Below are positions 341 to 463 of a stretch of 1,053 bases of DNA, piece by piece; position 1 is the stretch's first letter; each line of letters opens with the position of its first letter. Origin of the DNA: Escherichia coli (GTDB lineage Bacteria > Pseudomonadota > Gammaproteobacteria > Enterobacterales > Enterobacteriaceae); the NCBI RefSeq assembly GCF_003334385.1, contig NZ_QOWN01000131.1; one strand, written 5' to 3'. The notes under the pieces are model-generated. The model was given only the letters and a program-made list of their open reading frames with translations. It did not search any database and was not told the DNA's origin. The translations under genes were made by a program, and so were the position numbers.

Positions 341-371
341 GGCTGGTGGGTGTTAGGGGCACTCACCAGCC
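341..371. repeat. GC-rich imperfect inverted repeat / stem-loop (12-bp stem, 7-nt loop), function unknown
   Basis: GGCTGGTGGGTG (341-352) pairs with CACTCACCAGCC (360-371): 11 Watson-Crick pairs plus one G-T (G-U in RNA) at 349/363; loop TTAGGGG (353-359). No downstream U-tract (followed by ATCTGCTCATGCG). Confidence 0.5.
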
Positions 372-412
372 ATCTGCTCATGCGTCCGGATCACAAGCAA
401 ACCTCAGGCCCA

Positions 413-431: not shown

Positions 432-463
432 AATGAGCCTATCAGAGACAGGCTTAATGATCC

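Follow-up and report, generated by a model that had tools for sequence, protein, structure and literature searches.

What does a strongly paired, G+C-rich hairpin contribute between two genes of a prophage if no run of T residues follows it to make it a transcription terminator? The question is raised by a 1,053-nucleotide (nt) stretch of Escherichia coli DNA (assembly GCF_003334385.1, contig NZ_QOWN01000131.1; hereafter the window, i.e., the whole stretch that was analyzed), in which a stem-loop at positions 341-371 lies between a small open reading frame (ORF) and the 5' part of a DNA methyltransferase (methylase) gene. An original prediction, made from the nucleotide sequence by itself, had offered several roles for this stem-loop, namely an RNA stability or processing element, a palindromic protein-binding site, or a recombination site. 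We find that it is the upper helix of the first domain of a larger structured element, which occurs in lambdoid and N15-like temperate phages between a small winged-helix gene and, usually, a DNA methyltransferase gene. On balance, we favor the reading that this element is a conserved RNA of the Q-dependent late transcript, probably serving the post-transcriptional control or processing of the downstream gene, with a Chi recombination site overlaid on it.

Structure of the hairpin and of the element around it

The inverted-repeat arms of the hairpin, 341-352 (GGCTGGTGGGTG) and 360-371 (CACTCACCAGCC), are 92% complementary and form 11 Watson-Crick pairs together with one G-U pair (349/363), which is the 12-bp stem with a single wobble that was first reported; when folded as RNA, two extra U-G pairs extend it to a 14-bp helix with a 3-nt loop. 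Its free energy of -23.5 kcal/mol lies far below the mean of dinucleotide-preserving shuffles (-10.0 +/- 2.5; z = -5.4), none of the 200 of which folded as well, and the stem is hence indeed stronger than expected by chance. The sequence 3' of the stem (CATCTGCTCATGCG, with the tail CAUCUGCUCAUG) holds no T-run, and the terminator scan flagged only a second, upstream hairpin that overlaps the stop codon of the small ORF. The hairpin at 341-371 thus has the G+C-rich stem of an intrinsic terminator without the U-tract and, as had been proposed, is not a canonical terminator in this window. It combines with a basal stem into a 47-nt bipartite stem-loop (335-381; domain 1), which is in turn part of a ~135-nt structured element at 329-466 (138 nt in the covariance model). 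Both this basal stem and a Chi octamer in the left arm were overlooked in the original prediction. The parts of the element and the upstream hairpin are as follows:

300-317 (to 327 with the T-rich tail), + strand: stem of the terminator-like hairpin found by the terminator scan, with a T6 run at 318-323
329-334, + strand: conserved A-rich single-stranded 5' flank of domain 1, with the consensus GUGAAAAU; columns A6-A8 of the alignment A1 are invariant or nearly so
335-340, + strand: 5' strand of the basal stem, AUGGGC, invariant, paired in the minimum-free-energy fold and also complementary to 408-412
341-371, + strand: the reported hairpin, which forms the upper helix (12-14 bp and a loop) of domain 1
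372-375, + strand: internal loop AUCU, confined to the 3' side, where the upper stem meets the basal one in the fold
376-381, + strand: 3' strand of the basal stem, GCUCAU, from the fold and the covariance alignment
388-463, + strand: domain 2, a long hairpin of irregular pairing, closed at its base by GGAUCA (388-393) and UGAUCC (458-463)

The hairpin begins 17 nt past the T6 run and 13 nt past the T-rich stretch ending at 327, so the spacing of 14 nt first given is approximately right, depending on the endpoint chosen. The terminator-like hairpin is present, with changes, in the SfV, mEp460 and Klebsiella types and is absent in the Providencia and Proteus types. The idea that the terminator and the hairpin together make up a compound element is unsupported or incomplete: the hairpin is not a stand-alone 31-nt unit that goes with the terminator, but belongs to a leader that reaches the start codon, and the terminator is not conserved in the Proteus/Providencia lineages.

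The 6-bp basal stem (335-340 with 376-381) brings the domain-1 helix to about 20 bp in a 181-nt fold. This helix 1 is paired in 97.8% of the alignment cells, with the 3' strand varying against its invariant partner such that G-U, G-C, U-A or U-G pairs result. The internal loop, with the last stem base included, has the consensus CAU(U/C)N, of which C44, A45 and T46, invariant columns of A1, fall on window positions 371-373. A translated short ORF starting at the conserved AUG at 335 was considered, and this was rejected on account of predicted peptide lengths ranging from 7 to 33 residues across lineages, the absence of a Shine-Dalgarno sequence, and the compensatory changes in the arms.

The base of domain 2 (helix 3) pairs the six bases directly before the methylase AUG; it is paired in 90.8% of the cells and 4 of its pairs show double changes. 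No Shine-Dalgarno sequence is found before this AUG, and the mean predicted unpaired probability of the start region from -10 to -1 is 0.22. The conserved UGAUC(C/U) at -6 to -1 is complementary to GAUCA in the 3' tail of 16S rRNA, and GGAUCA (388-393), the partner of the start-region UGAUCC, mimics that stretch of the rRNA tail. At the DNA level, 388-393 and 458-463 both contain GATC in the window and in many lineages, with the copy at 459-462 being nearly universal. Domain 2 also contains a terminator-like hairpin on the minus strand (window 436-454: AGCCTGTCTCTGATAGGCT then CATTCTGCTT), which has a weak T-tract in the terminator scan.

The most invariant motifs of the entire element, viz., UGGGC (336-340) and GCCCA (408-412), are complementary to each other in 99.7% of the cells, with one double change, in the locus L192. 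Pairing between them would exclude the helix covering the start region, and a fold in which it is imposed lies 8.7 kcal/mol above that of minimum free energy. It lacks support from covariation because both motifs are invariant; it could act as a factor-driven switch.

Conservation, distribution and strand of the element

The comparison drew on 240 loci around methylase homologs of 60-100% amino-acid identity, of which the ~140 nt before the start codon were used. Representative upstream sequences folded singly yielded the identical two-domain architecture every time, and all 53 of the 53 distinct domain-1 sequences fold individually to the same bipartite shape. A covariance model of the 138-nt element detects it in every lineage tested, with the model R1 recovering the full element before methylase homologs in 82 loci, including those of coliphage N15, the Yersinia phage PY54 and the Hafnia, Vibrio and Morganella phages. 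In the model alignment, standard pairs account for 82.5% of the cells, and the covariation score of 0.226 compares with 0.06-0.08 when the partners are slid by 1-3 columns and was reached by none of 500 shuffles. Helix 2, i.e., the reported hairpin, shows changes on both sides in 10 of its 14 pairs. The pairing is thus conserved with compensatory changes across homologous regions, this being the very check on which the original prediction had made a locus-specific role depend. Owing to misaligned right-arm indels, the consensus that RNAalifold drew from a MAFFT alignment was poor, and it was replaced by the covariance-model alignment and the per-sequence folding; all-against-all column covariation was uninformative, being dominated by a split into two clades.

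The upper stems of different lineages are unrelated in sequence, as is apparent from their arms:

E. coli type: 5' arm GGCUGGUGGGUG, 3' arm CACCCACCAGCC
Proteus/Providencia type: 5' arm GACUGUAAAAGUG, 3' arm CACCUUUACAGUC
Locus L147: 5' arm GACAGUGAGGAUG, 3' arm CAUCCCCACUGUC
Locus L160: 5' arm GACCGAUGAGUG, 3' arm CACACAUCGGUC

Those of N15, PY54 and Vibrio each differ again. A scan of one genome per species recovered genuine copies from Escherichia, Klebsiella, Citrobacter, Enterobacter, Kosakonia, Kluyvera, Buttiauxella, Trabulsiella, Mangrovibacter, Pseudocitrobacter, Mixta, Erwinia, Hafnia, Rosenbergiella, Providencia, Proteus, Morganella and Vibrio. Within E. coli, the 59-nt hairpin region (326-384) is present in 2862 of 5426 complete genomes (median 1, maximum 8 copies per genome; 4,596 matching places in all), always within prophage late regions. 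The many scattered intergenic copies typical of dispersed palindromes of the repetitive extragenic palindrome (REP) kind were not seen among these 5426 genomes, and the dispersed-repeat distribution that had been raised as a concern gives way to a locus-specific one.

A scan of the window against Rfam 15 (E up to 10) returned no relevant family, the overlapping matches being at chance level (P26, 16.6 bits against a gathering score of 36, E = 1.3; mir-2008, 16.3 bits, E = 4), and scans of the element in five other lineages gave nothing at the gathering score. Scans of the window for tRNA and transfer-messenger RNA found nothing relevant, and an exact-sequence literature search for the element found no match. 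The small RNAs (sRNAs) AsxR, AgvB, StxS and Pas were considered as its identity and set aside, as the literature on them concerns other loci. We are apparently dealing with a widely conserved and previously undescribed folded RNA.

Several features bear on the strand and on the form, RNA or DNA, in which the element functions. Domain 2 has 117 G-U cells vs 30 A-C cells, which favors the + strand, i.e., that of the late mRNA. All 36 of the Chi-bearing domain-1 haplotypes fold better on the + strand, and in the loci L259 and L260, where the hairpin precedes a different gene, it is kept by way of 7 G-U pairs that would be 7 mismatches on the other strand. Furthermore, arms of 12 nt vs 13 nt, bulges in many lineages and the one-sided internal loop point to a single-stranded hairpin over a symmetric duplex site. 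From these observations, we infer that the functional form is RNA. Wobble pairs in domain 1 were also considered as a general proof of the + strand and were dropped as such, since they hold in Chi-bearing sequences only: the G/U-rich left arm tolerates transitions only in its partner, so the asymmetry of the Chi clade may stem from RNA pairing, the constraint imposed by Chi, or both.

The converse proposal is that the minus strand is the functional one, with domain 1 and the UUUU complementary to the A-run at 331-335 terminating an antisense RNA over the methylase start. It would account for the invariance of the A-run 5' of the hairpin, and in 10 of 17 non-Chi haplotypes the minus-strand fold is equal or superior; the locus L146 also has a weak leftward site resembling a promoter. 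However, no such leftward site is found in the window or in SfV, and none is conserved; the U-run is only 3-5 nt long and fails the terminator scan; hairpins of the Chi type are 6-12 kcal/mol weaker on the minus strand; and the wobble pattern of domain 2 favors the + strand. We accordingly regard an antisense terminator as highly improbable.

The late-operon setting and possible functions

The window is the late region of a lambdoid prophage. It matches a prophage of E. coli EC2 at 100% identity, many Shiga-toxin (Stx) 2a phages at 95-97%, phiP27 at 89% and SfV at 83% over the intergenic part. The order in EC2, from the left, is the Q antiterminator, a pR'-like promoter, the tR' terminator, a 65-residue ORF, the terminator-like hairpin and the reported hairpin, which are followed on the right by the DNA methyltransferase gene, tRNA-Ile, tRNA-Arg, the lysis genes, an HNH endonuclease and the terminase. 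This order places the hairpin within the Q-dependent late transcript, upstream of the position where Stx phages carry stx. To the left of the window and after the Q gene, a pR'-like promoter region and a strong tR' (CCCGCCGCCTGGCGGG then T6) occupy 7890-7993 of the locus L001; as this tR' ends 8 nt before the window starts, the whole window is downstream of the Q-controlled stop. The two genes flanking the element are:

116-313, + strand: small 65-residue winged-helix ORF; phrog_331 (unknown function), PHROG match with E = 1.8e-37
464-1053, running off the window, + strand: 5' part of the DNA methyltransferase gene, with a DPPY motif; N6/N4 type

The 65-residue protein has weak Pfam matches to the winged helix-turn-helix (HTH) domains of TrmB and MarR. 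Its AlphaFold2 model (predicted local distance difference test score 92) adopts a fold with three helices and a wing, and finds structural matches both in the DNA-binding domains of MarR and IclR and in the RNA-binding winged helices of SelB, and in MotA; it is a generic winged helix, the fold of which does not discriminate between DNA and RNA binding. Homologs of this small ORF precede the element in all lineages examined, those of the E. coli, Providencia, Proteus-type, Hafnia, PY54, N15 and Vibrio phages. A core motif, RCQLILTQL..AGL, is shared from the E. coli to the Proteus-type phages, with the PY54, N15 and Vibrio homologs being more distant. Domain 1 remains beside the small ORF even where the downstream gene has been replaced. 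The methylase matches PHROG DNA methyltransferase families with E = 1e-106, and its matches to NCBIfam adenine-specific methyltransferases are below the curated cut-off. In N15 (1740-1974 of the locus L252), the element ends at an ATG that is in frame and 78 codons upstream of the annotated start of gene 52; as this extension holds the DPPY catalytic motif, the annotated start appears to be too far downstream.

In the reading that we favor, the element would act after transcription on the expression of the downstream gene. Domain 2 would keep the methylase start region, which has no Shine-Dalgarno sequence, inside a helix, and domain 1, with its ~20 bp, conserved length, one-sided loop and invariant basal strand, would most likely be the docking or cleavage site of a factor that determines how stable the downstream cistron is or how well it is translated. 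Two candidates for this factor may be considered, namely the co-conserved 65-residue winged-helix protein, acting in the manner of Com on the Mu mom leader, and host RNase III, acting as it does on an intercistronic site of the T7 type.

As for the first candidate, a small regulator gene beside the leader of a DNA-modification or adenine methyltransferase gene is found in Mu and Mu-like prophages (PMC6483171, PMC3299994). The present locus, in which a small gene of regulator type precedes a start-concealing leader and a late gene for DNA modification, has a layout that parallels com-mom: in both, the small gene is directly upstream of a late, potentially harmful modification gene, whose start signals are within a stem-loop (a prediction in the present case). 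The leader hairpin is the RNA target of the regulator in com-mom, and domain 1 might be its counterpart by analogy. The small protein of our locus is, however, a winged helix rather than a zinc finger of the Com family, and has no sequence relation to Com; moreover, the leader is longer, has two domains, and belongs to a module in the lambdoid/N15 late operon behind Q. A more specific variant would have the winged-helix protein bind RNA as a Com-like translational switch at the invariant base and internal loop of domain 1, freeing 336-340 to pair with 408-412 and thus opening the start helix, in a unit portable to other late genes that doubles as a Chi joint. This variant strikes us as unlikely.

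As for the second candidate, intercistronic RNase III sites of the T7 type (e.g., R1.1) are irregular hairpins of ~20 bp in which an asymmetric internal loop separates the upper stem from the lower one. A cut in the loop would leave a protective 3' hairpin on the upstream transcript and a new 5' end on the downstream one. Domain 1 resembles these in its geometry: it lies between phage cistrons, and its basal stem (6 bp), loop (4 nt) and upper stem (12-14 bp) amount to about two turns of double-stranded RNA with an internal loop, with a length that is conserved across lineages. It differs from them in that its internal loop is on the 3' side only and in that just one such site was seen per phage rather than a series. 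A literature search for RNase III cleavage at this site found none.

The same winged-helix protein lends itself to a different proposal, whereby the palindrome is a duplex operator bound by a dimer of the protein, which would repress or activate downstream transcription in the manner of the controller proteins of restriction-modification systems. Its fold is of the MarR/IclR type, its gene is always beside the palindrome and co-travels with it when the downstream gene changes, and changes in both arms are also to be expected of a dyad operator. The outer GGCUG/CAGCC halves are symmetric and conserved. Nevertheless, the dyad is broken in many lineages by the unequal arms, bulges, internal loops of 1x2 nt and the one-sided loop, and the continuation of the helix past that loop into the basal stem fits a hairpin and not a duplex site. 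Typical winged-helix operators are also smaller than a 31-bp palindrome with abutting arms. The loci L146 and L147, whose small proteins are nearly the same, have different stems. The palindromic protein-binding site of the original prediction is hence disfavored, and we consider an operator of this kind quite unlikely.

The location of the hairpin 13-17 nt behind a canonical terminator in a Q-controlled operon also invites the explanation that it is a back-up transcription stop or the relic of one, which, with the 300-327 terminator, would bar unmodified polymerase from the methylase in lysogens while being read through by the Q-modified form. Like a terminator of the lambda tR' type, it is a G+C-rich stem-loop in a late leader. 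In one AT-rich lineage (L155, L159 and L164; about 1448-1485), the hairpin that occupies this position has a U7 tract and is a canonical terminator, and the L259 hairpin, whose tail CTTTGCTTAT is loosely a U-rich tract, is flagged by the scan as terminator-like, with a promoter-like site after it. However, intrinsic termination in E. coli requires a U-tract, and none is present in the window and most lineages, where the 3' flank instead pairs back as the basal stem. Such a stop would also leave the conserved length, the internal loop and domain 2 unexplained, and we give it a slim chance.

Chi octamers, mosaic junctions and the balance of evidence

In addition to its RNA-level features, the left arm of the hairpin carries one of two Chi octamers in the window:

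25-32, + strand: first Chi octamer, GCTGGTGG, oriented like the second and located in the leader of the small ORF (position 8025 of the locus L001)
342-349, + strand: second Chi octamer, GCTGGTGG, in the left arm, read from the sequence

The first is 310 nt upstream of the hairpin Chi and is conserved in SfV (position 2207 of L003). The 3' end of the strand bearing the Chi at 342-349 points to the lysis genes, the HNH endonuclease and the terminase/cos region, which is the orientation that RecBCD recognizes on entering from the right (cos) end of packaged or rolling-circle DNA (PMC12315714). The octamer is exact, and the site is presumably active. Whole-phage counts show a bias toward the same strand:

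SfV: 17 Chi on the + strand, 5 on the - strand
phiP27: 12 Chi on the + strand, 5 on the - strand
mEp460: 16 Chi on the + strand, 4 on the - strand

These far exceed the ~0.8-1 expected from base composition, and the sites concentrate toward the right end. Terminally clustered Chi in the active orientation have been reported in lambdoid phages without a recombination module of their own (Zheng et al., 2025; PMC12315714), including the phage LLS, which carries the present element (match H103). The likeness of our locus to that study extends to the exact octamer, its active orientation, the many co-oriented right-end Chi and the phage LLS. Chi is treated there at the genome level; no Chi within a conserved hairpin is described and the word "hairpin" occurs 0 times in the paper. 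The hairpin Chi is thus one of many co-oriented sites, the genome-level pattern of which is already published.

Among 150 distinct upstream sequences, 116 contain Chi, as do 30 of the 44 copies at the species level. It is absent, with the fold kept, from the Proteus-type, Hafnia, Rosenbergiella, N15, PY54 and Vibrio versions. In the AT-rich L155, L159 and L164 versions, it is again found in the 5' arm of the otherwise very different hairpin, with the octamer kept intact by three G-U pairs with the 3' arm. Our own reading is that the structure is older and more general, with the enteric 5' arm being additionally kept as, or recruited as, Chi.

Breaks in homology are found at either edge of the element and, in one class, within the hairpin. 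The DNA similarity of Stx2c, mEp460, cdtI and other phages to the window starts at about 333, i.e., at the 5' edge of the element; in mEp460 the small-ORF protein is only 55% identical to that of the window, and the methylase of the mEp460/Stx2c type reaches about 91% identity in its N-terminal part (L005). L259 and L260 have a near-identical small ORF and domain 1, followed by unrelated sequence directly past the basal stem (just after 381), and their downstream gene encodes an HTH-domain protein instead of the methylase and is then followed by tRNAs. In a third class (L257 and many ST131-type genomes), homology ends after 353, at the end of the left arm. With junctions at its edges and within it, the element is thus a recurrent joint between late-region modules, and domain 1 can travel together with either neighbor, the small gene before it or the methylase leader after it. 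L258 was considered as a further junction 1-3 nt past Chi and was rejected, since the comparison with L259 shows it to be a locally scrambled version of an intact hairpin before another gene. In L259 itself, a promoter-like site (10/12 matches) lies 3' of domain 1 at 1769-1796, and an STnc100 sRNA gene (2900-3090) follows three tRNAs.

The left-arm Chi and these junctions lend unexpected support to the recombination-site idea of the original prediction. In its strictest form, the idea would make the element a DNA-level feature only, i.e., a Chi in a conserved linker at which RecBCD/RecA recombination protects the phage DNA and reshuffles late modules, with no function as RNA. The prevalence of the octamer, its recurrence in the L155 hairpin by way of the three G-U pairs, and the homology breaks at ~333, after 353 and just after 381 are all in its favor. 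On the other hand, the fold is kept by compensation in the Chi-less versions, which in this respect also include the Providencia type, L147 and L160; the conserved basal stem, the internal loop and domain 2 go unexplained; and, with many other Chi in each phage, the one in the hairpin is not special for protection. A role confined to the DNA is, in our estimate, about as improbable as the duplex operator. Under the favored reading of a post-transcriptional RNA element, the same 8 bp would, in enteric phages, serve at the DNA level as one of the clustered, cos-facing Chi sites; the element also doubles as a joint for the exchange of late-region modules.

A number of observations weigh against that reading. 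The alignment behind the pair counts was itself fitted to the structure, for which reason the alignment-free folding of each sequence was added. Non-Chi domain-1 haplotypes fold better on the + strand in 6 cases, on the - strand in 10 and equally in 1, and the wobble evidence from domain 1 for a + strand RNA is confounded because Chi may hold the G/T-rich left arm constant. In N15, the small gene and the element have an annotated promoter and terminator between them. The near identity of the L146 and L147 small proteins, set against their very different upper stems, makes sequence-specific recognition of the upper stem unlikely. Finally, about 12% of the close E. coli prophage copies carry an uncompensated single mutation that breaks both Chi and a base pair. 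The Chi-breaking changes seen are G342A or G346A (L011, L013, L023, L024, L026, L027, L034, L088 and L018), and such copies could reflect decay in defective prophages. Each of the four rival explanations, for its part, accounts for some observations and is at odds with one or more of the features tested.

About half of the complete E. coli genomes carry the element, as do many phages of Enterobacterales and Vibrio, Shiga-toxin phages among them. It provides a practical aid to annotation in that it marks the true methylase start, as illustrated by gene 52 of N15, which appears to be annotated 78 codons too short. The sharing of 8 bp by an RNA helix and a Chi site at a module boundary makes it a testable case of how the mosaic joints of lambdoid phages could be both functional RNAs and recombination hot spots. 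Its location directly upstream of the stx insertion site means that it may influence the processing or stability of the toxin-carrying late transcript. If it is a genuine regulatory RNA, it would add a widespread family, absent from Rfam and from the literature searched, to the few structured RNAs known in the late operons of temperate phages.

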